A DNA stretch of 64,000 nt from an uncultured Candidatus Saccharibacteria bacterium (lineage in GTDB: Bacteria > Patescibacteriota > Minisyncoccia > Phycocordibacterales > XYD1-FULL-46-19): NCBI GenBank assembly GCA_964639285.1, contig CAZXCI010000001.1:142305-206304 (forward strand), given 5' to 3'. Shown here piece after piece: positions 4,556 to 62,020 of the stretch (position 1 is its first letter; the number at the start of each line of letters is the position of its first letter). The notes below the pieces were generated by a model. That model was given only the letters and a program-made list of their open reading frames with translations, was not told where the DNA came from and did not search any database. The position numbers and the translations under genes were made by a program.

Positions 4556-4627
4556 TTTTTATTATTTTTAACTTATCAACTTTTGTAATAATTAAATTAT
4601 ATCAAAAATCTCTCAACGATTCTATGT

Positions 4628-4664
4628 CCCTGCCCGCATTGCTATGCAAAGCGTTGCAGGCGGG
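4628..4664. repeat. GC-rich hairpin element 'core A' (CCCTGCCCGC-N18-GCAGGCGGG), copy 1
   Basis: 37-nt sequence identical to 8028..8064, inserted into different flanking repeat backgrounds; related copy in reverse orientation at 44402..44428. Confidence 0.6.
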
Positions 4665-5116
4665 CTACGAGAGGTAGCCAAAAACACGTTGTAAAATAAA
4701 GAGAAAAAATAGGTTCCGATGAATAGAAAAAGTTTTTACTACTTTTGTGTAGAGATGATTTTACTATCATTAATTACTTCAATTGCTTTAAAATTAAACT
4801 GGTTATTATAAACCCAAACCCCGATAAGATAGAAGCAATATCATAAGATAAGATACTTCCATTATCAATGATATTTATTAACCCATTGAATATTAAAAGA
4901 CCGGCGATAATAAATAATAAAATAATGAATAGTTTGTTCATTTATATTTTATCTAAAACTTATATAATTATATTTTGCCACAATCTCTTAAAAAATTCGA
5001 GTGTCTTATTTGAAAGAGGGATACAAAATAACCCCCGCTTTAAGGGCTATTTTAGTCTGCTAGCAAAATGCTAGCAATGGCTCCGTTGGGTAGAGAGAGT
5101 TGGAACCTATTTTGTC

Positions 5117-5983
5117 TTATTCAGACGATAAAGTCGGGGTCGAGCCATTATCAAAAACGGTGATCTTTGTCGACTTGCTAATTATATCTGTAGGGCCAGT
5201 AATTCCTAGATCATTAAGTTTAAAGTCTTTGACCGTAATACTATTACCAATCAATGTCGCTCGAATAGTTCTATTTTTTGAACCGGCATCAACCTCAGCT
5301 CTAAGAGCAATATCTACCCATTTATCTTTGAAAAATCCAATGTAGAATTGTTTAAAATGAAAATCAATCCTGCCTGATTCTGAAATCATATCAGTATCTA
5401 ATATTGAGACCCCAGGCTGATCGTCAACAATCTCTATCTTAAAGTTGCGAAATAAATCGGGATCGTAATTTTCAACGTTAAAACTCAAAGTGTGAAGCAT
5501 AATATCCTGATGTGGCCTTAAACTGAAGTTTCCCAAAATGATATTGTTACCCGTTGGGGATATTTTAAAAGTTTGAGTCGGCTCCTGATTTGGACTTAGT
5601 CGTGTATCTACTATAACTAAATTGGTGGCGCTTTCATTTGAAGCGTCGACCGAACTTGTTTGAATCATTGGTTTCTGATCTAAAACTTTAGGAGTTGTTT
5701 CTTTTTTTTCAGCACTATTCTTCTTTTGAGAATAGGTCTCTGTTTGATCTATGTCTTGAGGTGTTTCTGTGGGATTCCTTAAATCTTGATCTATGGGTTC
5801 CTTAACCTTTGTCTGTTGACTTTTTGATCCTATCGCTGGGGTAGTAGAGGCAATAGGAAAAATTTTTCCTTTGAAGAAAAAACTTGAGAAGATATTCCAA
5901 GAAAGGGGATTCCACCAAGAGGCATTAGTTAAAAAGGGGATAGAAACAATTAATAAAAGGAAAATTATTGATATCTTTTTCAT
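5117..5983 (-). CDS. hypothetical secreted protein (288 aa, signal peptide)
   Basis: N-terminal MKKISIIFLLLIVSIPFLTNA signal-like segment; conserved promoter and 3' flank elements. Confidence 0.55.
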   Translation of the reverse strand: MKKISIIFLLLIVSIPFLTNASWWNPLSWNIFSSFFFKGKIFPIASTTPAIGSKSQQTKVKEPIDQDLRNPTETPQDIDQTETYSQKKNSAEKKETTPKVLDQKPMIQTSSVDASNESATNLVIVDTRLSPNQEPTQTFKISPTGNNIILGNFSLRPHQDIMLHTLSFNVENYDPDLFRNFKIEIVDDQPGVSILDTDMISESGRIDFHFKQFYIGFFKDKWVDIALRAEVDAGSKNRTIRATLIGNSITVKDFKLNDLGITGPTDIISKSTKITVFDNGSTPTLSSE

Positions 5984-6087
5984 ATCATTGAATTATATCA
6001 AAAGTCTTTAACCCTATCTAGGTGTCTGCTAGCAAAAAGCTAGCAATTGCTCCGTTGGGTGGAGGAAGTTAGAAATTCTTTGACGAC

Positions 6088-6609
6088 CTAATTACCCACA
6101 GAAACTTTTATCGTACTTGAGATCACGCACTCATGTGATTCATCGAACGGTGTGCTTAAAATTGGGGAACATTTGTCTGTATCCCAGACCTTAAAAAGCA
6201 AGGTGTAATCATATGGTTTAAGATAGGCATAGGTGTGACTGAAAGAAATAGGTTTTGATTGATCATAGAGAACAGAAAAAGGGCCCTCAATACCATCTTC
6301 GCCTTCACCTCCCCACTCGATCTGATATTTTAAATTTGCCCCAGTTGGTGCCGTGATATTTGCTGTCCACTTGCCAGTCTCACCAATTTTAAGTGAGGTG
6401 GGCCCAGAGATAGAATCTATTGATAATTGAACAACCTTTTCGTCAACAATAGTATTGTCATCATTTTCTTTTAGTGAATTATCAGAAGAACTGTCGACTA
6501 GTTCATTGGGTGTAGTAGATTTTTCGTCGCTGACCTTTTTAAATACAAAATAATAAACTCCGCCGACAATCAAAATCAAAGTAACAACTCCAATTAAATA
6601 TTTTTTCAT
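6088..6609 (-). CDS. hypothetical secreted or membrane-anchored protein (173 aa)
   Basis: N-terminal TM/signal segment; promoter GATTTTTGATATAATT upstream; 3' flank element downstream. Confidence 0.55.
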   Translation of the reverse strand: MKKYLIGVVTLILIVGGVYYFVFKKVSDEKSTTPNELVDSSSDNSLKENDDNTIVDEKVVQLSIDSISGPTSLKIGETGKWTANITAPTGANLKYQIEWGGEGEDGIEGPFSVLYDQSKPISFSHTYAYLKPYDYTLLFKVWDTDKCSPILSTPFDESHECVISSTIKVSVGN

Positions 6610-6892
6610 TTTAATTTTTACTATTTAATAATTGGCTTAATTATATCAAAAATCCTCTAGCGATTCTACATCCTATTCGGGGTCACCAAAAAACATATTG
6701 TAAAATAACAAGAAAAAATTGGCTCGCTTGGCAGTCTGCGTTTCGAACTTATGATTGGAGTATGGCCATAGGCGATCTTAAGACAACAACCAAGGAAATC
6801 AACTATTTATTGTCTTTAGTTTGATTATACTCTCGGTAGGGGTGGGGTACCCCCAGATATTTGGTTCCATGTTTTGTATATAAACAACAAAC

Positions 6893-6952
6893 CCGCCTCG
6901 CTCACACGACGACTTGGGTTTGTCGCGGTGTTCGCGGGCGGGGCTAGTCTAC
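6893..6952 (-). terminator. terminator-like GC hairpin repeat (paralogue of 8165..8217) overlapping the stop of ORF 6944..7231
   Basis: AAACCCGCC...GGCGGGGCT hairpin followed on the minus strand by TTTGTTGTTTAT; same element about 1.3 kb away. Confidence 0.5.
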
Positions 6953-7231
6953 GTCAGGGGATTTTGGCTGAGAGAACTCCTCAAAAAGACCGATCGCTAC
7001 AAAACACAAAAAGAGGAACGCGAACCCCAAGACGTAAGGCAAAGGGTCTGTCACCCCACTGAGGGGTAAGAGCATCCCTAAGAGAAAACCGACGAGAAGA
7101 TTCTCTTTGAGCCCCATCTCCCAGGGGTTCTTCGGCTGTTTCCTCTTTATGTAGCTCACCACAAGGCAAGCGATAAGAGAAAGAATAATGTAGCCAAGAG
7201 CGGACAAGAGGTGGACGAAGATAATGTTCAT
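6944..7231 (-). CDS. hypothetical small membrane protein (95 aa)
   Basis: ORF track; three hydrophobic segments; the last two codons and stop (V-D-stop) lie inside the repeated terminator element. Confidence 0.4.
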   Translation of the reverse strand: MNIIFVHLLSALGYIILSLIACLVVSYIKRKQPKNPWEMGLKENLLVGFLLGMLLPLSGVTDPLPYVLGFAFLFLCFVAIGLFEEFSQPKSPDVD

Positions 7232-7456
7232 TTGGTATATCCTTTTCTGTTGAGGAACGTTTCAATGTCTAATTTGATCATAGCACTTACAATGTACTTT
7301 GTCAATATCTTAAATTTAATTTTAAGTTCGGACGTTCTTTTCGGGGTACAAAAATAACTCTTGTTTTAAGGGCTTCAATTTGCACTTCTGCCTGCCGGCC
7401 TCAGTGTCTTCCTTGTCTCCACTCGTTGAGCTCCGATGGGCAGAGGAGGTCCGAAC

Positions 7457-7990
7457 TTATTTTTTATAAAAACTATTATCAGATGCCGTAATCTGTATCA
7501 ACGCATTTCGAAGTGATTCTTCGAGACTGACCTCTCTTAAGATTGCTCCCCCAGAATATGTCCCCCAAGTATCATTTGGAAGTTTTCCAAATTCTTCCTC
7601 AATTAAATGCATAACATCACAGTGCTCCATTTTAAGTTCGTTCATTTTCTGGAGAATATAATCGGGTACCTTTAAACCGCTTGAGTATCCATAGAATTCC
7701 TTTCCATTTTTATCAATTATGGCTGTCCAAGCTTCCTCGTAAATATGTCCATAACGCTCAATTAGGCCACTTTCAAGCCCAATAAAAAAGTCAGCACCAG
7801 GCTCAGTGTTCTTAGCACCTAACGCTCGATTTCTTGATCCGTCGTAGGTTTGTTTATCGTAAGGGGTATCTGGTACTTTTGAATCTGAAGGACAACCCTC
7901 AACAGACACTGGCCCAGTGAATAATTGACTCACGACTTTTTGAGTAATTAAAATTTTTCTATCACTGGTTGAACCAAGAATAATTCTCAT
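7457..7990 (-). CDS. yjjX: non-canonical purine NTP pyrophosphatase, YjjX/DUF84 family (inosine/xanthosine triphosphatase)
   Basis: VSVEGCPSDSKVPDTPY...GSRNRALGA...ADFFIGLESG matches the YjjX signature block (AVESGVPEQPFG...GARNRV...ADFWVAIEAG). Confidence 0.7.
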   Translation of the reverse strand: MRIILGSTSDRKILITQKVVSQLFTGPVSVEGCPSDSKVPDTPYDKQTYDGSRNRALGAKNTEPGADFFIGLESGLIERYGHIYEEAWTAIIDKNGKEFYGYSSGLKVPDYILQKMNELKMEHCDVMHLIEEEFGKLPNDTWGTYSGGAILREVSLEESLRNALIQITASDNSFYKK

Positions 7991-8027
7991 GGCGTAATTC
8001 TATCAAATTTCGAATTAAAGTTCGAAC

Positions 8028-8064
8028 GTCCCTGCCCGCATTGCTATGCAAAGCGTTGCAGGCG
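8028..8064. repeat. GC-rich hairpin element 'core A', copy 2
   Basis: identical 37-mer to 4628..4664. Confidence 0.6.
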
Positions 8065-8164
8065 GGTCTACTCGGGGTACAAAAACAACCCTTATTTTAA
8101 GGGCTATTTTCACGAGCTCCGATGGATACATAAAGTTCGAACCACACTTATCTTTTCATAAACA

Positions 8165-8217
8165 ACAAACCCGCCTCACAACTGACAGCGGGTTGCTGTG
8201 GTTGTGGGCGGGGCTAG
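8165..8217 (-). terminator. terminator-like GC hairpin repeat (paralogue of 6893..6952) overlapping the stop of ORF 8214..8525
   Basis: AAACCCGCC...GGGCGGGGCTAGTCGAC; supplies the V-D-stop end of the upstream ORF. Confidence 0.5.
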
Positions 8218-8525
8218 TCGACAAGCGACCAGTCGATTTTGGCGAAGATGTCTTTGGTATCATACTCGCCATTTCCGCACATCATCAGGAAGAACGGAAG
8301 GAGGCTGGTGAGTTTCTCGGGATCGGCTTCGACCGTCTGGATGAACAATGTGCGTGTCAGGCAGGTATAACTCCCGTCACTGGAACCGGTGTACTTGCCA
8401 CTTGGCACGTGCACAGCCCTAACGAGTTCACCCCTGATTTCCTCTCGGCGTTCTTTCGAACAAGTCGGCGAGGAAGCCTCGATAACGAGATTCTTGATTG
8501 TTTGCTGGGACAACTTGCTAGCCAT
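8214..8525 (-). CDS. hypothetical protein (103 aa), second gene of a GC-richer two-gene module
   Basis: ORF track; about 50 % GC versus about 36 % in the neighbouring cassette genes; start overlaps the end of 8518..8841 by 8 nt. Confidence 0.4.
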   Translation of the reverse strand: MASKLSQQTIKNLVIEASSPTCSKERREEIRGELVRAVHVPSGKYTGSSDGSYTCLTRTLFIQTVEADPEKLTSLLPFFLMMCGNGEYDTKDIFAKIDWSLVD

Positions 8526-15518: not shown

Positions 15519-15527
15519 TGTGGATAA
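15519..15527 (-). promoter_or_regulatory. perfect DnaA box (TGTGGATAA, reverse complement TTATCCACA)
   Basis: exact 9-mer consensus; one of three in the window. Confidence 0.4.
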
Positions 15528-18238: not shown

Positions 18239-18277
18239 TGTTTGCCTTTTTGCCTTCAATCGTTATACTGTAATAAT

Positions 18278-18832
18278 ATGATAGAAGAAGAGAAAAATCT
18301 TGCCCGACGCTTGTTTATTGCCCTCCCAGTGGAAGGATCTCTGAGGAGTGATGCTCTCACTTGGCAGGCTGACCATGTCGCTTGGCCGGTATCTTGGCTC
18401 TCAGGGGAGAGTTTCCATATTACCGTTGTTGCTCCCTGGCTGGAGACTGATGTTGACTTGATTATTAGGAAATTAGATGAATTCGCTAGTAAACCTCGCA
18501 ACACTTTCTTCATTGATTTTAATAAGGTAGTTTTTGGTCCTAACCGTCAAACGCCTCGACTTGTCTGGGCTGAGGGTAACCCACCTCAATCTCTGCTCAA
18601 ACTTAAAGATGATATCGAGGTAACTCTCAATCGGCCTGACCCCCGTTTCTATCGTTTGCACTTAACTCTAGCTCGCTTCAAAGCGCCAGATTTTGGTCCA
18701 ACTTTGCCGAACCTCTATGACCGAGTAGATTGGGGCGGGGAGATTAAAGGTTTTACCTTGATCGAATCGACCATGACTCCCGACGGTCCCACTTATACCA
18801 AAATCAAAGATTTTTCTTTTGCCGGCTTATAA
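18278..18832 (+). CDS. thpR: RNA 2',3'-cyclic phosphodiesterase (2H phosphoesterase, LigT/ThpR)
   Basis: two H-x-T-x motifs (FHITVV and LHLTLA); the start is probably the internal Met (MIEEEK) rather than 18242. Confidence 0.7.
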   Translation: MIEEEKNLARRLFIALPVEGSLRSDALTWQADHVAWPVSWLSGESFHITVVAPWLETDVDLIIRKLDEFASKPRNTFFIDFNKVVFGPNRQTPRLVWAEGNPPQSLLKLKDDIEVTLNRPDPRFYRLHLTLARFKAPDFGPTLPNLYDRVDWGGEIKGFTLIESTMTPDGPTYTKIKDFSFAGL

Positions 18833-21753: not shown

Positions 21754-22263
21754 ATGGTTTTAACTCCTCATGCTGTCGTCGGTGCTGCTCTTGCTTCAGC
21801 CTTTGGGCTTGGTCCTGGGGGCGCTCTGGTTGCCGGTTTTGTCAGCCACTTCTTGTTGGATAGTCTTCCGCACTGGGATTACAAATTAAGTTCGGCAAAT
21901 ATCGACGAGGAGAATCCTTTTAATGACGATATCCCCATAAGTCGAAAATCTCTCCGCGATTGGGCGAAGATTGGTTTGGACTTGGCTCTTGGGCTAGGCC
22001 TTATCTTCCTCTTCTTTTCTCTGAACGGGCAAGGTGTCAGAGTTGTCAGTCTGTTGGCAGGGGCGCTAGGCGGTCTTTTGCCCGATGGATTGCAGATTCT
22101 CTTTATGAAATTACGTCGCGAACCACTAAAAACTTTTTTTCGTTTTCATCTTTTTATGCACTCACCTCGACGGATTAGAGACACTCTTTGGGGCCCTTTT
22201 TGGCAAGGGATAATTCTTCTGCTCGCACTTATACTCGGGAATTGGAGCTTCTTTATTTGGTAA
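21754..22263 (+). CDS. membrane-bound metal-dependent hydrolase-like protein (YdjM/DUF457-like)
   Basis: multi-TM protein with a SHFLLDSLPHWD motif. Confidence 0.45.
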   Translation: MVLTPHAVVGAALASAFGLGPGGALVAGFVSHFLLDSLPHWDYKLSSANIDEENPFNDDIPISRKSLRDWAKIGLDLALGLGLIFLFFSLNGQGVRVVSLLAGALGGLLPDGLQILFMKLRREPLKTFFRFHLFMHSPRRIRDTLWGPFWQGIILLLALILGNWSFFIW

Positions 22264-22825
22264 TAAAGGTATCTACTTTACCTATAAGACCAGTAGCGTC
22301 ACCTTCGATTCCGGTAACCTCACCTTCTAAGCCGGAGACTTCACCGGTAATACTAGTGACATTGCCGCGTATTCTAGATGTATCGCCAATTAGGTTTGTC
22401 ACGTTGCCAGAGATCTCAGTGACGTCACCTTGGATACTTGAGACATCGCCAATTAGGTCGCTAACATTTCCTTTGATCTTGCTAACATCACCACGGATAT
22501 TGGAGACATCACCACGGATATTGGAGATATCACCATAGAGTCCAGAAATGTCTCCGCTGACATTTGTTGTGTCTCCTGTGAGGTGGGTAACGTTGCCACG
22601 GATATTGGAGACATCACCACGGATATCACTGACTGTTCCAAAAATGCCACTAATGTTCCCGCTGATATGGCTTGGGTTGCCGATAATCTGGTGGAGAGTG
22701 ACATCGCCATAGATCTTAGATACGTCACCGCGGAGCTTGGAGAAATCTCCCCAGATAGCCTCGTGAACATTCTCGACATTATCGGTATTCTCTTTAATTT
22801 TTGGATTAACTCTTTGTAGGGCCAT
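22253..22825 (-). CDS. tandem heptapeptide-repeat protein (about 20 repeats of G-[DN]-[VIT]-[ST]-x-[IL]-x)
   Basis: translation shows consecutive GDVSNIR/GDVSKIK/GNVSDLI/GDVSSIQ... units; the DNA has the matching 21-bp periodicity. Confidence 0.6.
   Translation of the reverse strand: MALQRVNPKIKENTDNVENVHEAIWGDFSKLRGDVSKIYGDVTLHQIIGNPSHISGNISGIFGTVSDIRGDVSNIRGNVTHLTGDTTNVSGDISGLYGDISNIRGDVSNIRGDVSKIKGNVSDLIGDVSSIQGDVTEISGNVTNLIGDTSRIRGNVTSITGEVSGLEGEVTGIEGDATGLIGKVDTFITK
22290..22760. repeat. imperfect 21-bp tandem repeats (coding; encode the heptapeptide repeats)
   Basis: visible periodicity in the sequence, e.g. repeated GATATTGGAGACATCACCACG units. Confidence 0.6.
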
Positions 22826-22851: not shown

Positions 22852-23625
22852 ATGACCATTATAGCATCAATTATCCTAGGAATAGTAGAGGGGGTGACTG
22901 AGTTCCTACCTATTTCATCCACCGGACACCTGACTTTAACAGTTGACCTTTTGGGTATTGCTCAGACGGAATTTGTGAAGAGTTTTGAAGTGATCATCCA
23001 GCTGGGGGCAATTTTGGCTGTTGTTGCTCTCTATTGGCAGAAACTTTTGACCAACACTGCTGTCCTTAAACGAGTTATCGTTGCCTTTTTGCCGACAGCG
23101 ATCTTGGGTTTGACCTTCTATAAAGTGATCAAGACTTATCTCTTGGGCAATAGCCTTGTTGTTCTTATCTCCTTGTTTGTTGGCGGTTTAATTTTGATTC
23201 TCTTTGAACTTTTCTACCAAGAGAAGGACGATGACAAAGTTGACCTCGAACAAATATCTTATCCACAGGCCATTGCCCTTGGCCTTTGTCAGTCAATAGC
23301 CATGATCCCCGGTGTTTCTCGTTCGGCGGCAACGATTGTTGGGGGCTTGGCTTTGAGGATTAGACGAGAGACTATTGTTGAATTTTCTTTTTTGTTGGCG
23401 GTACCGACCATGGCAGCGGCGACCGGTTTAGACATCCTTAAGAGCTCTTTTGGTTTTTCTGCGGGGGAGTGGGGCTTGCTGACTTTGGGCTTCTTTGTTT
23501 CTTTTCTTTCTGCTCTGTTGGCTATTAAATCATTCTTAAATTATGTCCGCCATCACGATTTTATTGCCTTTGGCCTCTACCGAATTGTTATTGCCCTCGT
23601 TTTTCTCTCTATTTTCTTTGTGTGA
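22852..23625 (+). CDS. uppP: undecaprenyl-diphosphatase
   Basis: N-terminal signature GVTEFLPISSTGHL and a multi-TM profile. Confidence 0.9.
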   Translation: MTIIASIILGIVEGVTEFLPISSTGHLTLTVDLLGIAQTEFVKSFEVIIQLGAILAVVALYWQKLLTNTAVLKRVIVAFLPTAILGLTFYKVIKTYLLGNSLVVLISLFVGGLILILFELFYQEKDDDKVDLEQISYPQAIALGLCQSIAMIPGVSRSAATIVGGLALRIRRETIVEFSFLLAVPTMAAATGLDILKSSFGFSAGEWGLLTLGFFVSFLSALLAIKSFLNYVRHHDFIAFGLYRIVIALVFLSIFFV

Positions 23626-34946: not shown

Positions 34947-35495
34947 ATGTATAATTTTTCATCATTTAAAACAAAATTAGGGGAAGTGGAAGAGTGGCTC
35001 GGGCGAGAATATTTAGGGGTTAGGACGGGGAAAGCTTCTCCTGCTGTCTTAGACAATGTCATGGTAGATTCTTATGGCTCCAAGACTCCACTTAAGCATG
35101 TAGCGGCCATTGGGACTGAAGATGCGCGAACTATTCGTGTAACTCCTTGGGACAAGAGCCAACTAAATGCTATCCAGACGGCTATTGACGTGGCGAATCT
35201 CGGACTTTCTGTTTCGCCGGACGAGACGGGATTAAGGGTGATTTTCCCTGTTTTGACCGAAGAGCGACGCAAAATGCTGATTAAAATAATGGGGGAGAAG
35301 CTTGAAGATGCTCGCATCTCGGTGCGCAAAGAGCGAGAAAAAATCTGGGCCGATATCCAGGCCGAAGAGAAGGCCGGGAAGCTTAGCGAGGACGAGAAAT
35401 TCAAGGCCAAAGATGAATTACAAAAATTGATCGATGAAGCCAACAAAAAGCTAGAAGATTTGTCGAAACGTAAAGAAACCGAAATAATGTCGTAA
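34947..35495 (+). CDS. frr: ribosome recycling factor
   Basis: full-length match to the RRF pattern (ASPAVLDNVMVDSYGSKTPL...). Confidence 0.9.
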   Translation: MYNFSSFKTKLGEVEEWLGREYLGVRTGKASPAVLDNVMVDSYGSKTPLKHVAAIGTEDARTIRVTPWDKSQLNAIQTAIDVANLGLSVSPDETGLRVIFPVLTEERRKMLIKIMGEKLEDARISVRKEREKIWADIQAEEKAGKLSEDEKFKAKDELQKLIDEANKKLEDLSKRKETEIMS

Positions 35496-35497
35496 TC

Positions 35498-35581
35498 ATT
35501 AATCAGCTCATACTTCTAAAAAGTCCTCGGATCTCCTCACTCCGTTCGGCCAGACATTTTTATAAGAATGAGCTGATTAAT
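35498..35581. repeat. composite element: perfect 14-bp inverted repeat (ATTAATCAGCTCAT / ATGAGCTGATTAAT) enclosing 'core B' (AAAGTCCTCGGATCTCCTCACTCCGTTCGGCCAGACATTT)
   Basis: core B recurs at 55647..55686 and 55724..55745 and partially at 45651..45663, there with different flanks. Confidence 0.6.
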
Positions 35582-35592
35582 TAAATAATAAA

Positions 35593-36702
35593 ATGACCAT
35601 AATTCTTTTCATTGTTGTTCTTGCTATCTTAATCCTCACTCATGAGCTTGGGCATTTTTTGACGGCGAAGTGGGCGAAAATTCGAGTTGATGAATTTGGC
35701 CTTGGTCTCCCACCCAAAATTTGGGGGATTAAGTGGGGGGAGACTGTCTATTCTATCAATTGGTTGCCTCTCGGAGGCTTTGTCAAAATTTTTGGTGAGG
35801 ATCCCAATGAAGAAAATATTAGTGGACCCGATAGTGCTCGTTCTTTTGTTAATCGGCCGAAGTGGGTCCAGGCTGTCGTTTTGGTGGCTGGCGTTACTCT
35901 TAATTTTGTCCTGGCCTGGGTTCTAATCTCCATTAATCTTGGGATTGGGATGCCGGCTGGTCTTGAGGATTTGCCGCGTGGGCTTCAGGTGAGAAATGAA
36001 TCACTCTCCATCGTTAATGTCTTAAGAGAATCTCCAGCCTCTGAAGCGGGCCTTCAGGTTGGAGACAAATTGATTTCTTTTTCTTCGGGAGAAGAAAAGA
36101 TTATTGATCTCTCTGTTGAGTCGGTCCATAATTTTACCAAGAAATTTCCTGATCAACCGATCAAGGTTGAATATGTTCGCTCAGACTCTAGCTCGGGACA
36201 GAATTCTGTTGCCACGGTTATTCCTAAGTTGGGGGTAACGGGGAACGAAGCCGCGATTGGTATTGCCACACAGAAGATTGGGATTGTATCGGCCTCTTGG
36301 TGGCAGACTCCTTTCTATGGTCTTTTCTTTTCTTATCATCTGACAATTAACACATTGCTTGCTTTTGGTGATTTCTTCTCCAACATCTTTTCTTCGGGGC
36401 GAGAGGCGCTGGGAGCAATTGCTGGACCGATTGGTATTTATAGTTTGATTGATGACGCGAGCCGTCTTGGTTTTGTCTATATTCTAAATTTTGTAGCTTT
36501 AATCTCTATCAACTTGGCGATTCTCAACCTCCTCCCTTTCCCAGCTCTCGATGGTGGTCGGCTACTCTTCGTCATTATTGAAGCTGTTATTCGTCGACCA
36601 ATCAATCCCAAAGTGGCCAGTGCTCTCAACTTGATTGGCTTTGTCCTCCTGATTCTGCTTATGTTCATCATCGCCGTGAGCGATATCTTCAAACTATTAT
36701 AA
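35593..36702 (+). CDS. rseP: RIP zinc metalloprotease RseP (site-2 protease, M50)
   Basis: HELGHF (HExxH) in the first TM, PDZ domain, C-terminal LDGG motif. Confidence 0.85.
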   Translation: MTIILFIVVLAILILTHELGHFLTAKWAKIRVDEFGLGLPPKIWGIKWGETVYSINWLPLGGFVKIFGEDPNEENISGPDSARSFVNRPKWVQAVVLVAGVTLNFVLAWVLISINLGIGMPAGLEDLPRGLQVRNESLSIVNVLRESPASEAGLQVGDKLISFSSGEEKIIDLSVESVHNFTKKFPDQPIKVEYVRSDSSSGQNSVATVIPKLGVTGNEAAIGIATQKIGIVSASWWQTPFYGLFFSYHLTINTLLAFGDFFSNIFSSGREALGAIAGPIGIYSLIDDASRLGFVYILNFVALISINLAILNLLPFPALDGGRLLFVIIEAVIRRPINPKVASALNLIGFVLLILLMFIIAVSDIFKLL

Positions 36703-45540: not shown

Positions 45541-45588
45541 CTAAATGTTAGTTATCCGATGGCTAAAATTTAGCGAACATTAATAGAA

Positions 45589-45619
45589 CCCCCCGTTTTG
45601 CCGAAGGCAAAACGGGGGG
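45589..45619 (+). terminator. intrinsic terminator after the GH18 gene
   Basis: 13-14-bp perfect stem CCCCCCGTTTTGCC-GAA-GGCAAAACGGGGGG + TTTAT. Confidence 0.7.
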
Positions 45620-45667
45620 TTTATGTTATGGTCATTCGACCATTGCTCCGCTCACTCCGTTCGCGGG

Positions 45668-45676
45668 TTATCCACA
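45668..45676 (+). promoter_or_regulatory. perfect DnaA box TTATCCACA upstream of mraZ
   Basis: exact consensus 9-mer; preceded by the core-B-like 13-mer CTCACTCCGTTCG. Confidence 0.4.
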
Positions 45677-45737
45677 GTTTTGGGTGGGTGGGGGTTGTTG
45701 TGAAGTGGTGCAAAGTGGGATAAAATGGGAAGTAATG

Positions 45738-54973: not shown

Positions 54974-55612
54974 TTAGCTACGGTTTTTGAGGGCATTTTT
55001 GATAGTCTCGGGGTCAGCGTACTCGAGCTCGCTCCCCGTGGAAAGACCTCGGCCAAGAAGAGAAATCTTGAGGCCTGCCCCAGATGGAGTCGGGGGATTA
55101 GTTACGTTGCGTAATTTATTGATCAACCAGTCAGTGGTATGGTCACCTTCGGTAGTGGCCGAGAGAGCAATGATTACTTCTTTTAGTCCGTCTTCTTTCT
55201 GCCGTCTTTTTAGTTCCTTTAAGAGGGGAAAAAAACGAATATGGTTCTCTGGTTCGGGGTCAAGAATAGGGACATTGCCACCAAGGACAAAATAATAGCC
55301 GTTATAAATCTTGGCCCTCTCGATGGCATCGAGATCAATATCTTTCTCGACAATAAGAAGACTTGATTTGTCTCGTTGTTCATCAGCACAAATTTTGCAT
55401 TTATCAGTCTGAAGTGGATAACCATTACTGAAGAAGCGACCACAGGAGAGGCATTGCTTAATATCTTTCTTAATATTTTGAACCTTCTCCCCCAGCTGAT
55501 TGAGATAATTTTGATCAGTTGATAATAAATAATAGACAAAACGTCGGGCTTGGCGAGGACCGATACCGGGGAATTTTTTAAACAAATCAGTTAGTGAATT
55601 TATTGTTTCCAT
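54974..55612 (-). CDS. recR: recombination protein RecR
   Basis: HhH (LFKKFPGIGPRQARR), C4 zinc finger (CLSCGRF...CKIC), Toprim; start taken at METINSL. Confidence 0.9.
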   Translation of the reverse strand: METINSLTDLFKKFPGIGPRQARRFVYYLLSTDQNYLNQLGEKVQNIKKDIKQCLSCGRFFSNGYPLQTDKCKICADEQRDKSSLLIVEKDIDLDAIERAKIYNGYYFVLGGNVPILDPEPENHIRFFPLLKELKRRQKEDGLKEVIIALSATTEGDHTTDWLINKLRNVTNPPTPSGAGLKISLLGRGLSTGSELEYADPETIKNALKNRS

Positions 55613-55623
55613 TTTTGCCTTCG

Positions 55624-55710
55624 GGGCAAGAAATGTTGTTTTTAAAAAGTCCTCGGATCTCCTCACTTTGTTCGGCCAGACATTTTAAAAAAACAACATT
55701 TCTTGCCCCT
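55624..55710. repeat. composite element: perfect 21-bp inverted repeat (GGGGCAAGAAATGTTGTTTTT / AAAAACAACATTTCTTGCCCC) enclosing core B copy 2; partial third copy at 55724..55745 abutting the dnaB stop
   Basis: read from the sequence. Confidence 0.6.
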
Positions 55711-55751
55711 TCGTTAAATTTTAAAGTCCTCGGATCTCCTCACTTCTATTT

Positions 55752-57107
55752 TTAAAAACTGCCAAAATCTCCCTTTTCAATATCTGAAAAACTGGTGCGG
55801 GCGGAGTCGAAATAAAGTTCGGCTTTCCCGGTTGGGCCGTTGCGGTGTTTCTCAATGAGAATCTCGGTAATACTCTTCTTCTCATTAGTATCTTCATCTT
55901 TCTCTCGATGGATGAAGAGGACGACGTCGGCGTCCTGCTCAATCGAACCAGAGTCGCGGAGGTCCGAGAGACGGGGTCGACCGCCACGTTGCTCGACGGC
56001 GCGGTTGAGCTGGGAGAGAGCAAGAACGGGGACATCAATCTCGCGGGCCAGAGCCTTAAGTGAACGAGAGACTTCGGTGATTTGCTGGACGAGGGAGTCT
56101 GTCTCCTTGCGGGGGACCATGAGTTGTAAGTAGTCGACAATGATTAAGCCTAGTCCGTGTTCGGTCTTAAGTTTGCGGGCCTCCGACTTCATACGCAAAA
56201 TATTGTTTGATGGTTCATCGTCAATGAAGATGGGAGCTTGAGCAAGGGAGTCCATCGCATCACGTAAACGAGCGAAGTCCTCGTCGGCGCGGACAGCGCC
56301 AGTGCGCAATTTCCACGAATCGACAAAACTCTCGGCGGCGAGCAGGCGGTCGGTTAATTGTTGGGTGCTCATTTCGAGAGAAAAGATACAGGTGGGAACT
56401 TTGTTGCGACAAGCGGCATGACGGGCAATATCTAGAGCCAAAGAAGTTTTACCCATCGATGGTCGAGCGGCCAAGATAATGAGGTCAGACTTTTGTAACC
56501 CGGCCAATTTGCTATCAATATCACGGAAGCCGGTGGAGACACCGCGAAGAGAGCCGTCAGTCTTGCTTAAGTGGTCGAAGCGTTCCCAAGCTTCAGAGAG
56601 AGCCTCTTTGATGTTAGTAACTTTCTTGTTGGCATAGGATCCAAGATTAAAAATAATTTTTTGGGCGCGGTCTAAGATATCGGTGACATCTTCGTGTTCA
56701 CGATAACCCAGTTCGGAGATCTGATCGGCTGAACTAATGAGTCCGCGGAGAGCTGCCTTCTTGTGAACTAATTCGGCGTAGTGCCTGATATTAGAAGCAG
56801 AGGGAACTTTGTTAGCCAGTTCGGCAATATAACTAGAGCCGCCCACACTCTCTAATTGCCCTAGATCCTTAAGCTTAGATGAAACCGAGACAAGGTCTAC
56901 TGGTTGACCGACATCTGAGAGGTCGAGCATGGCATGATAAATCTTCTGATTACGGGTGGAGTAAAAATCTTCAGGTTTTAAGAAATCAGCAATCTCGCCC
57001 AGGACCTTGGGGCTAATCATAATTGATCCGAGCAGAGCTTGCTCGGCATCACCGTCATTGGGGGGGATTCTCAATTTTGTGTTAGTAAAAGCCGGCTTGG
57101 TAGGCAT
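55752..57107 (-). CDS. dnaB: replicative DNA helicase DnaB
   Basis: N-terminal domain (LGSIMISPKVLGEI), Walker A ARPSMGKTSLALDIA, RecA-like motifs. Confidence 0.9.
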   Translation of the reverse strand: MPTKPAFTNTKLRIPPNDGDAEQALLGSIMISPKVLGEIADFLKPEDFYSTRNQKIYHAMLDLSDVGQPVDLVSVSSKLKDLGQLESVGGSSYIAELANKVPSASNIRHYAELVHKKAALRGLISSADQISELGYREHEDVTDILDRAQKIIFNLGSYANKKVTNIKEALSEAWERFDHLSKTDGSLRGVSTGFRDIDSKLAGLQKSDLIILAARPSMGKTSLALDIARHAACRNKVPTCIFSLEMSTQQLTDRLLAAESFVDSWKLRTGAVRADEDFARLRDAMDSLAQAPIFIDDEPSNNILRMKSEARKLKTEHGLGLIIVDYLQLMVPRKETDSLVQQITEVSRSLKALAREIDVPVLALSQLNRAVEQRGGRPRLSDLRDSGSIEQDADVVLFIHREKDEDTNEKKSITEILIEKHRNGPTGKAELYFDSARTSFSDIEKGDFGSF

Positions 57108-57204: not shown

Positions 57205-58464
57205 TTAGGCTAATTTAAGCCCCAAAACTTGGTCGAATTTGCTGATGAGGTCGAGCTTTTGGGCGGGGGAGAGATCTTTGGCTGAGAGTACAGATTGAAG
57301 TGAGGCGAGGGCGGAGGCGGTGTTGAGAGAGGAGATTTTTGTGGTGAAGTTGGAGAGAAAAATTTCTTGAGCTTCCCGAGGAGAGACCTCGGCCTGCCCG
57401 CAATGCTTTGTAACGCAAGGCAGGCGGGGCTCACTAGAGGACTCACCTCCGGAAGCTTGGGCTTCGTCGGCAATTTGGGCAATTTTCTTCTTCAAATTAT
57501 CATAACCCTTCTGGGCGGCTTCGAGGGACTCCCAAGTAAAATTAACTTTTTGTTTGTAATTTGTCTGGAGGAGAAGGTAACGGTAGGCGAGGGGATTGTA
57601 GCCCTTTTTCTCTAAATCTTCTAAGGTAAAAATATTGCCTAAAGATTTGCTCATCTTTTTGTTGTCGACAAGGATGTGCTCGGAGTGGAGCCAAGTCTCG
57701 ACAAATTTGTGACCAGTGAGCGCCTCACTCTGAGCAATCTCGTTGGTATGGTGGGGGAAAATTAAATCGACACCACCGGTATGGATATCGGTCACCTCGC
57801 CTTTGAAGGCGATCTCGTTGATCGCCGAGCACTCAATATGCCAACCGGGCCGGCCTTCGCCTAAGACGGGATGGGGCCAGAAGATGTTGGCGTCACCTAC
57901 TTCGTGCGCCTTCCAAAGAGCAAAATCGCTCAAATTATCTTTCTCATACTCGTCTACCTTAACCCGCGCCCCAATCTTCTTCCCCTCTAAGAATTTCTCC
58001 CCAACTAGTTCACCATAATGGCCAAAGTCTTGTTGGTATTTCTCGATGTTGAAGTAGGTGCTCCCGTCCTCAGCCTTATAAGCATAGCCTTTATCAATTA
58101 GTTTAACGATGAAGTTTTGAATTTGGGGAATAACGTCGCTAACCTTAAGAAGTTCTATCTCAGAAACAGAGACATTTAATTTTTCTAAATCTTGGAGAAA
58201 TATCTTAGTGTATCTCTCTGTATATTTTTTTAAATCCTCCGTCCCAGTTTCTTGGCCAAATTCTTCGATAGTGTTACGAATAGTTTTGTCGTCAATGTCG
58301 GTGATGTTCATTGCCCATTTAGGGCTTCGTCCTTCAAATTTTTTGGACCGAAAGACAAGATCGGCGAAAACGTAAGATCGCAGATTGCCAATATGGGCCA
58401 TATTATAAACGGTTGGCCCGCAGGTGTATAAGTTGAGAGCAGATTTTTGGGGGTTTAGATCCAT
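57205..58464 (-). CDS. cysS: cysteine--tRNA ligase
   Basis: HIGN and KMSKS motifs; N-terminal CGPTVY. Confidence 0.9.
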   Translation of the reverse strand: MDLNPQKSALNLYTCGPTVYNMAHIGNLRSYVFADLVFRSKKFEGRSPKWAMNITDIDDKTIRNTIEEFGQETGTEDLKKYTERYTKIFLQDLEKLNVSVSEIELLKVSDVIPQIQNFIVKLIDKGYAYKAEDGSTYFNIEKYQQDFGHYGELVGEKFLEGKKIGARVKVDEYEKDNLSDFALWKAHEVGDANIFWPHPVLGEGRPGWHIECSAINEIAFKGEVTDIHTGGVDLIFPHHTNEIAQSEALTGHKFVETWLHSEHILVDNKKMSKSLGNIFTLEDLEKKGYNPLAYRYLLLQTNYKQKVNFTWESLEAAQKGYDNLKKKIAQIADEAQASGGESSSEPRLPCVTKHCGQAEVSPREAQEIFLSNFTTKISSLNTASALASLQSVLSAKDLSPAQKLDLISKFDQVLGLKLA

Positions 58465-62011: not shown

Positions 62012-62020
62012 TGTGGATAA
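62012..62020 (-). promoter_or_regulatory. perfect DnaA box (TGTGGATAA)
   Basis: exact 9-mer; the third copy in the window. Confidence 0.35.

Follow-up and report, generated by a model that had tools for sequence, protein, structure and literature searches.

Core B, a probable palindromic insertion element of Patescibacteria with a conserved tip and covarying arms

Rickettsia palindromic elements (RPEs) are palindromic repeats of ~100-150 bp that are also found in frame inside unrelated housekeeping genes (PMC10969869). [quoted passage not shown] Correia elements have been reported to invert (PMC10969869). In MITEs, the terminal inverted repeats are conserved, the target-site duplications are defined (TA for Correia) and a parent insertion sequence (IS) can be recognised. 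Repetitive extragenic palindromic (REP) sequences are extragenic, species-specific and 20-40 nt in length, with a 5′ GTAG-type tetranucleotide and a cognate gene for a REP-associated tyrosine transposase (RAYT), which is a Y1 HUH enzyme of the IS200/IS605 type; in REPINs the conserved parts are the ends. Here, we describe core B, a conserved sequence at the tip of a long hairpin, which was recognized in a stretch of 64,000 nucleotides (hereafter the window) from an uncultured Candidatus Saccharibacteria bacterium (assembly GCA_964639285.1, contig CAZXCI010000001.1, positions 142,305 to 206,304 of the forward strand). The closest database proteins to the window genes come from Candidatus Paceibacterota metagenome-assembled genomes (MAGs). 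The genomes of Patescibacteria, also known as the candidate phyla radiation (CPR), are tiny and dense, and unexplained insertions are a known trait of their proteins. We consider it probable (about 0.6) that a dispersed palindromic insertion element, specific to Patescibacteria and similar in kind to RPEs and MITEs, has core B as its conserved apical module. This reading is carried by insertions with empty sites in close relatives, the occurrence in many CPR classes, the covariation of the stem, a core that flips, and the in-frame tolerance in essential genes. No description of such elements in CPR bacteria was found in the literature, an exact-sequence search included.

The initial annotation of the window reported a repeated 40-nt core placed within inverted repeats at two loci, and this repeat is present. 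The 40-mer AAAGTCCTCGGATCTCCTCACTYYGTTCGGCCAGACATTT occurs at 35520-35559 and 55646-55685, both on the + strand, with an expectation of 0 in shuffled sequences. Its first 18 nucleotides, the 18-mer GTCCTCGGATCTCCTCAC, are found three times in the window as compared with 0.02 expected occurrences, the third one at 55726-55743 within a 23-nt direct repeat (55723-55745). The annotation had also noticed this partial copy but had it abutting the dnaB stop codon, from which it is 6 nt away. In total, the window contains two full copies of core B and one truncated copy. Perfect complementarity extends over 14 bp at 35498-35511/35568-35581, exactly as annotated, and over 21 bp at 55623-55643/55689-55709, which, like the 40-mer, had been placed 1 nt off. 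At both full copies only 34-35 nt remain between the arms, and the core itself forms an imperfect hairpin. Its pairs are GTC/GAC, GG/CC, CC/GG and AC/GT, and they are interrupted by the CTCxA internal loop, a bulge (ATCT) and the TCxTC loop. The core therefore extends the stem and does not form a large open loop; the palindromes, in whose loops it had been thought to reside, are real and longer than first described.

Copy 1 is sense for frr/rseP, and copy 2 is antisense to dnaB/recR. The view of core B as an inserted, repeated cassette whose orientation is unrelated to transcription stands, and this independence points to an action at the DNA level. The recR ribosome-binding region (~55613-55622, - strand, GAAGGCAAAA-ATG) is situated just past the left end of the copy 2 hairpin. 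We infer that copy 2 re-created this region at the hairpin base, and that both window copies are passengers at the frr-rseP and dnaB-recR junctions.

For the census of the core beyond the window, an exact 18-mer scan of one genome per species returned 20 loci (L numbers denote loci outside the window). Sixteen of them, located in CPR-type or unclassified MAGs, contain the full core, among them members of Saccharibacteria, Paceibacteria/Paceibacterota, Nomurabacteria, Adlerbacteria and Minisyncoccia. The remaining four (L007, L008, L009, L014) come from contigs of high GC content, and in these the 3′ half of the core is missing. In every full-core match the 18-mer is followed by 3-31 variable bases and then by G(Y)TCGGCCAGAC, and complementary arms flank both halves. 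A metagenome scan with the gapped pattern added eight loci, four of which were duplicates. A relaxed pattern search and a covariance model termed R1 revealed diverged copies beside exact ones (L013 7046-7096, L021 739-771, L016 4657-4712 and L002 1179-1243); across the window, R1 had no hits besides copy 1, copy 2 and the truncated copy. Overall, the loci examined yielded ~30 copies of the core with covarying arms in Saccharibacteria, Paceibacteria and other Patescibacteria. No core match was obtained in the viral contigs, annotated phages and plasmids searched.

The junctions occupied in the window were compared with those of relatives. Between frr and rseP, the site is empty in L031, L032 and L033 (Frr 88%, 86% and 80% identical, respectively), where the gene ends overlap (4 nt) or are separated by 1 nt (ATGTCGTGACC). 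Correspondingly, the dnaB-recR spacer measures 1 nt in L037 and 16 nt in L035 (AAAGTGAGGCTAAAAA), with no hairpin in either. As these empty sites are free of hairpins, the whole hairpin is the inserted unit, and the earlier proposal that the core had entered pre-existing terminator hairpins has to be abandoned. An origin of the arms from the target was likewise rejected, since both arms are extra in comparison with empty UvrB loops and empty gene junctions. A different hairpin of ~115 nt, with arms ...ATGCGAATGCTACGAATA.../...TATTCGTAGCATTCG... and an A-rich loop of 30 nt, was observed at the dnaB-recR junction of L034 (9882-10000).

Two relatives carry core B at these same sites. In L030 (Frr 89% identical) the element is present between frr and rseP, with TAATC at the left junction, as in the window, and TAAATAA...ATGACC at the right junction. 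Its core is identical to that of copy 1 at 35 of 37 positions, and its arms are largely rewritten but still pair. Because this locus was reached via Frr homology and not via a core match, it provides unbiased evidence that the core stays constant while the stem drifts with compensation. In L036, the orthologous dnaB-recR element is ~93% identical to copy 2, and the truncated copy is further eroded. The truncated copy of the window starts where the native recR Shine-Dalgarno sequence AAAGTGAGG, as seen at the empty site of L035, would be, and has GTGAGG in common with the core; it could be the remnant of a second tandem copy or a junction formed via GTGAGG microhomology. Elsewhere, L021 and the L013 UvrC gene each contain a tandem pair. 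The arms thus belong to the element together with the core, as they would in a fixed regulatory hairpin; however, the presence or absence of the element at the same site is polymorphic, which does not agree with a fixed hairpin.

The arms had been described as unrelated between loci. When anchored on the core, the arms of ~26 copies follow the degenerate consensus TTC-GCAGAAAA...TTTTCAAAAG-GTCC, with a mean pairwise identity of ~0.48 between copies, whereas the core is near-identical. Between the orthologous UvrC genes of L002 and L023 the arms are 85-86% identical, and between window copy 2 and its ortholog in L036 they are 93-96% identical. Moreover, the copies in TruB (L004) and LeuRS (L012) are 81% identical in the left arm and carry identical 30-nt apical inserts. 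The apical insert TTTTCACCTTCGGCAAAA serves as a subfamily marker for copies in UvrB (L003), TruB (L004), LeuRS (L012) and UvrC (L013). Such derived features, common to copies in different host genes, indicate copying between loci. In these alignments, the arms are fast-diverging parts of one homologous element, in which complementarity is kept, and not unrelated sequences.

On the + strand the element comprises an optional outer helix of 2-5 bp, a TTCxTTC mismatch loop, an A/T-rich stem of 20-26 bp, a bulged purine, the core and the tip. The core reads GTC-CTC-GG-ATCT-CC-(TC)-AC ... GT-(TC)-GG-CC-A-GAC with a variable tip of 3-31 nt, and the hairpin spans ~84-125 bp in the copies examined. 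The covariance model R1 and the pair counts were built on an alignment of 26 copies. All 15 modelled arm pairs vary on both sides, and standard pairs account for 79.7% of cells as compared with 60.1% in shuffles. The arm covariation score was 0.41 versus 0.11 in shuffles, none of 500 shuffles reached 0.41, and sliding the register by one column halved the signal. In L001 and L005, Watson-Crick TC/GA takes the place of the TC/TC loop of the core, and in L021b TT/AA does, so that this part of the core is helical as well. The TTCxTTC mismatch loop at the base of the stem is present in about two thirds of the copies, with 2-5 bp of further pairing outside the loop. As pairing continues beyond them, the TTC triplets lie within the element, and their interpretation as a target-site duplication was rejected.

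Either strand could be the folded one. On the complementary (minus) strand both conserved symmetric loops oppose purines to purines (GAxGA and GAAxGAA), one more pair, G-U (or G-T), forms in GUCU/GGAC, and this strand folds ~10 kcal/mol better in most copies. Two weak strand checks gave 16 versus 10 G-T wobbles in the arms and, for the apical inserts, a stability advantage of the minus strand in only 8 of 12 cases. Given its two purine-purine loops and the G-T wobble pair, the minus strand (GUCUGGCCGAAC...GUGAGGAGAUCCGAGGAC) is more likely the folded strand.

Sixteen copies are located in frame within long open reading frames (ORFs) that are kept open, ten of them sense and six antisense to the host gene (Table 1). 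The core is read as VLGSPH, SSDLLT or PRISS, and in antisense as EEIRG. A fifth frame, RSED (antisense), was seen at the peptide level only, in database UvrB proteins, and the sixth frame, the sole one with a stop codon (G TGA GG), was never seen. The use of both orientations and of five frames indicates that the conserved entity is the nucleotide sequence and not a peptide. Apparently intergenic copies separate distinct complete genes, such as dnaN and its downstream neighbour, adk and map, or argS and ileS. An intron or a translational bypass is unlikely, since 16 of 16 intragenic frames are open, the stop-bearing frame is unused and the intergenic copies split no gene.

A survey of 120 CPR UvrB homologues, which were not chosen by the core, gave 109 distinct loops at the position where the UvrB copies reside. 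Of these, 83 are short (empty), ~9 contain core-B-like peptides, some with decayed cores, and 17 hold other inserts, including GC-rich ones. By this sampling, the UvrB loop is a recurrent landing place or a permissive loop. Unrelated GC-rich inserts after E(V)RP were observed in the UvrB proteins P0007, P0019, P0063, P0113 and P0119, with peptides like SPPLRGGVGGG...PSLKKEG and EGVGVGVEGG, which suggests further families of hairpin inserts. We also considered whether UvrB database entries of 370-470 aa reflect an effect of the element and rejected this explanation on the basis of one case (L038, 2243-4287 on a 168-kb contig), in which the N-terminal half of UvrB is split into four ORFs by frameshifts and not by an element. 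Many of the 370-470-aa entries may share this cause, either an assembly error or a pseudogene.

The loci L019 and L021 are orthologous, with matches at almost all aligned positions of the flanks. L021 contains two perfect hairpins in tandem with cores in opposite orientations. In L019 there is one element, composed of the left arm of the first hairpin and the right arm of the second, and its core is identical to the second core but inverted. By any path, the transition between the two arrangements requires an inversion of the core between the arms as well as a deletion between the two cores. Inversion of the core also explains why either core orientation is found at orthologous positions in UvrB, TruB, PheT and UvrC.

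As to the mechanism, we propose that the element spreads in a copy-and-paste manner into sites that tolerate insertion, and that only insertions leaving genes readable survive; intragenic copies would then be translated, giving loop insertions of neutral effect. The active form of the element is probably a folded single strand of DNA. A putative trans-acting protein would recognise the bulged tip, by analogy with the recognition of REP/REPIN by RAYT and of IS200/IS605 ends by the Y1 HUH transposase TnpA. Stem complementarity would be kept either by a need for the hairpin in this recognition step or by template switching in which one arm is copied from the other. That something recognises the tip is indicated by the 33-nt tip being near-constant across class-level lineages while the stems are rewritten yet paired.

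Several observations weigh against an insertion element of this kind. The copy number looks low, with 2-3 copies in 64 kb here and none in three relatives over 20 kb each. Copies 1 and 2 have little sequence in common in their outer arms, so they are not recent copies of each other. A comparison of empty and filled sites shows no clear target-site duplication, and a Pfam scan of 30 ORFs located at 1.4-26.7 kb of the window revealed no transposase or other mobilising candidate; part of the window beyond these ORFs shows synteny with annotated relatives. The minus strand is only the likelier of the two to fold, and the translation of intragenic copies as loop insertions, though the simplest reading, is deduced from the open frames. 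In addition, the orthologous core in L030 is far better conserved than the arms, which inert selfish DNA does not predict, and neither core preservation nor its sharing among deep lineages fits plain junk DNA. The better conservation of the core suggests ongoing constraint, by function or by gene conversion.

The last two points account for the appreciable weight that we leave to a first alternative, unlikely as we judge it, namely that core B is a functional DNA element of the host. The core would be the binding or loading site of a CPR-wide protein, either as duplex DNA or as a hairpin, extruded or formed on the lagging strand, and the element would have spread and been retained because it is useful, comparable to parS sites, DNA-uptake sequences, plasmid single-strand origins or primosome assembly sites. 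The near identity of the core across very distant CPR classes, the 35 of 37 positions kept between the window and L030 beside rewritten arms, and the independence of orientation from transcription would all be expected of such a site. The conserved ATCT bulge, CTCxA loop and TTCxTTC loop resemble recognition features, and many hosts are DNA-repair or replication genes (uvrB, uvrC, dnaB/recR, downstream of dnaN). Conversely, close relatives have no copies at the same sites, the density is low and irregular, and the cores have decayed in some lineages (UvrB of L002, PheS of L016, P0001). Moreover, the same sites accept different hairpin families, as in dnaB/recR of L034 and the GC-rich UvrB inserts, which is better explained by colonisation of permissive sites.

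A cis-acting RNA hairpin useful to the host, such as an mRNA stabiliser, a processing site for RNase III/E or a translation-coupling module in operons, seems somewhat less probable still. In line with this idea, both window copies are placed between co-transcribed genes, the base of copy 2 supplies the Shine-Dalgarno region of recR (GAAGG), the minus strand of the core holds the strong Shine-Dalgarno-like sequence GAGGAGAUCC, and the stems covary; furthermore, Correia and ERIC elements are known substrates of RNase III/E (PMC10969869). However, an asymmetric core that is found both ways relative to the mRNA (ten sense and six antisense in genes, opposite in the two window copies) and that flips between orthologous loci is difficult to reconcile with an RNA signal. 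Many copies are placed within genes, and a stem of 25 bp in a coding sequence is a burden and not a signal; relatives exist without copies, and there is no terminator signature. The notion that copies cluster at terminators also fails in the window: the terminator scan found none at copy 1 and near copy 2 only a small basal sub-hairpin at the frequency expected from shuffles, and the A/T-rich stems are not followed by a T-tract as an intrinsic terminator would demand. No terminator-like feature matches either window hairpin.

We regard it as improbable that the copies form an independently transcribed family of small structured RNAs, for instance with a tip that mimics the 16S rRNA 3′ tail. 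The covarying stem, the conserved internal loops and the variable tip do make up the architecture of a structured RNA, and the better folding of the minus strand in most copies would suit it. The plus-strand core (GGAUCUCCUCAC) agrees at 9 of 11 positions with what we take to be the 16S rRNA 3′ tail/anti-Shine-Dalgarno sequence (GGAUCACCUCCU), with a rough chance probability of ~0.03. Against this stand the location of most copies inside ORFs of essential genes, the random orientation and context, and the presence/absence polymorphism. Promoter and terminator signals were not above shuffled expectation in our scans. With Rfam 15 at gathering thresholds only two tRNAs of the window reached threshold, and at E<=10 only generic long-hairpin (miRNA-precursor) matches were obtained, far below threshold and equal on both strands; hence no Rfam family corresponds to the element. 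Likenesses to K-turn, attC, signal recognition particle (SRP) RNA and T-loop were considered and dropped, as their defining geometry or sequences do not fit.

The least credible model is that of the initial annotation, a mobile 40-nt core that enters the loops of unrelated terminator palindromes or selects for flanking dyad symmetry, which could appeal to the dissimilar outer arms of the two window copies but is contradicted by empty sites without any hairpin, by arms that conform to a common consensus and accompany the core into coding sequences, and by the absence of terminator features at the window copies.

With the dispersed palindromic insertion element as the preferred reading, core B can be compared with the systems described above. 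Like RPEs, it is a dispersed palindrome of roughly 100-150 bp without coding capacity of its own, both intergenic and often in frame in housekeeping genes, in bacteria with small genomes, and no transposase is known for either. Its hosts, however, are Patescibacteria and not Rickettsiales, no sequence relation to RPE-1 to RPE-10 was found, without RPE sequences for a direct comparison, and, unlike RPEs with their conserved peptide and fixed frame, it is read in five frames and both orientations; it also differs in its conserved tip, its rapidly diverging arms, its flipping core and the sharing of the same core across class-level lineages. Like REP/REPIN sequences, core B copies are imperfect palindromes with conserved bulges and mismatches, dispersed and present in tandem or inverted pairs, with no clear target-site duplication, and recognition as folded single-stranded DNA is supposed here. 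None of the defining REP features was found for core B; most copies are intragenic, no Y1 transposase is encoded by the 30 scanned window ORFs, and the conserved part is the tip and not the ends as in REPINs. With Correia, ERIC and other MITEs it shares small size, the long hairpin, the lack of autonomy and the position between co-transcribed genes in both orientations. Unlike in MITEs, the termini are the least conserved part (arm identity ~0.48), and no duplication or parent element was found. As an analogy only, the flip/flop of the terminal repeats of parvoviruses such as adeno-associated virus (AAV) likewise presents an asymmetric tip in either orientation between the same palindromic arms, but these are telomeres of linear viral genomes with hairpin-primed replication, whereas core B hairpins are chromosomal and internal. 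We hence regard core B as a variant of the RPE/MITE/REP kind and not as a member of any of these families: it lacks the fixed frame and peptide of RPEs and the conserved termini of MITEs and REPs, and neither a clear target-site duplication nor, in the 30 scanned window ORFs, a cognate transposase was found.

The core B hairpin represents a concrete source, at the nucleotide level, of some of the insertions in CPR proteins (UvrB, UvrC, aminoacyl-tRNA synthetases and tRNA-modification enzymes), which leaves the genes unbroken. Intragenic copies are a potential source of error for gene callers, in alignments and in structure prediction, and the covariance model R1 can be used to mask or annotate the elements in CPR MAGs. 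More tentatively, and with considerable doubt on our side, core B might stand for a new class of hairpins across the whole Patescibacteria radiation, on whose invariant bulged tip a conserved single-strand-specific machine would act in mobilisation, priming or repair. If so, the element would enter gene junctions and surface loops of essential enzymes as a general source of lineage-specific insertions in CPR proteins, to which sister families such as the 'core A' palindromes described below would contribute, and it would be a rare case of a mobile element conserved in its loop and not at its ends. The recognition partner of the tip could reveal a new mobilisation or DNA-metabolism activity in bacteria that cannot yet be grown alone.

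Table 1. Core B copies and adjoining genes. Coordinates refer to the window unless a locus is named.
Feature	Position or locus	Strand	Remark
Copy 1, inserted segment, frr stop to rseP start	35493-35592	+	supplies new frr stop TAA and spacer before rseP ATG
Copy 1, left arm	35498-35522		25-nt inverted repeat, 92% complementary to 35557-35581; outer 14 bp perfect
Copy 1, core GTCCTCGGATCTCCTCAC-TCC-GTTCGGCCAGAC	35523-35555	+	covariance model 75.3 bits
Copy 1, conserved bulged purine	35556 (A)
Copy 1, right arm	35557-35581		inverted-repeat partner of 35498-35522
Copy 2, TTC of basal TTCxTTC mismatch loop (GAAxGAA on opposite strand)	55620-55622		partner 55710-55712
Copy 2, left arm	55623-55648		26-nt inverted repeat, 92% complementary to 55684-55709; 21 bp perfect
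Copy 2, core	55649-55681	+	antisense to dnaB-recR transcript; covariance model 72.1 bits
Copy 2, right arm	55684-55709		inverted-repeat partner of 55623-55648
Copy 2, second TTC of TTCxTTC loop	55710-55712
Truncated third copy	55714-55745	+	arm remnant TTAAATTTTAAA and core 5′ half; covariance model weak, 20.6 bits
frr	34947-35495	+	upstream of copy 1
rseP	35593-36702	+	downstream of copy 1
recR	true start ATG at 55612	-	flanks copy 2
dnaB	55752-57107	-	stop codon 55752-55754
UvrB copies	L001, L002 (1179-1243), L003, L010		all in the same loop, between E(V)RP and GQIxDF
UvrC copies	L002 (6483-6560), L023, L013		two copies in L013
TruB copies	L004, L026		same position
PheT copies	L016, L020		same position
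PheS copy	L016 (4657-4712)
LeuRS copy	L012
Tgt copy	L005
TsaD copy	L022

A 13-mer upstream of mraZ, CTCACTCCGTTCG, had been taken for a relative of the core fused to a DnaA box. It is present at 45651-45663, but the resemblance is coincidental. In the relative L031 the mraZ leader is conserved and contains the same DnaA box but no element, and the 13-mer site reads GCTCGCTACGCTCGC; R1 gave no hit at the 13-mer. This divergence in the orthologous leader, together with the failure of R1 to detect it, identifies the 13-mer as a chance resemblance. The DnaA box, conserved upstream of mraZ in L031, is unrelated to the core B element and is one of four perfect DnaA boxes (TTATCCACA) in the 64 kb (15519-15527, 23259-23267, 45668-45676 and 62012-62020; 0.45 expected). 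Also upstream of mraZ are a perfect GC-rich hairpin at 45588-45620 (ACCCCCCGTTTTGCC GAA GGCAAAACGGGGGGT), followed by the palindrome TGGTCATTCGACCA (45683-45700) and TGGG repeats.

A GC-rich palindrome of the 'core A' type, CCTGCCCGCAATGC...GCAAGGCAGGCGGG, was observed at 57390-57428 inside cysS (57205-58464, - strand), with related copies at 4626-4664 and 8028-8066. In comparison with the CysRS of L035, it corresponds to an in-frame insertion of 12 aa (RLPCVTKHCGQA) in the CysRS of the window, and the surrounding segment is variable among relatives. Core A is a second family of hairpin inserts in this genome, and here the insert keeps the reading frame. The two related copies, identical GC-rich palindromes of 39 nt, are among the repeated intergenic modules that split a cluster of small ORFs without Pfam match at 4581-8222, where several families of 29-58-nt direct repeats are found as well. 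Degenerate repeats with a periodicity of 21 nt occupy 22301-22758 within the coiled-coil-like ORF 22253-22825 (- strand). A LigT/2′-5′ RNA ligase-like phosphoesterase is encoded at 18242-18832, with no link to the hairpins found. Finally, L018 (3907-7374) encodes an isoleucyl-tRNA synthetase of 1155 aa in which a histidine-phosphatase (His_Phos_1) domain is inserted at residues 500-679.

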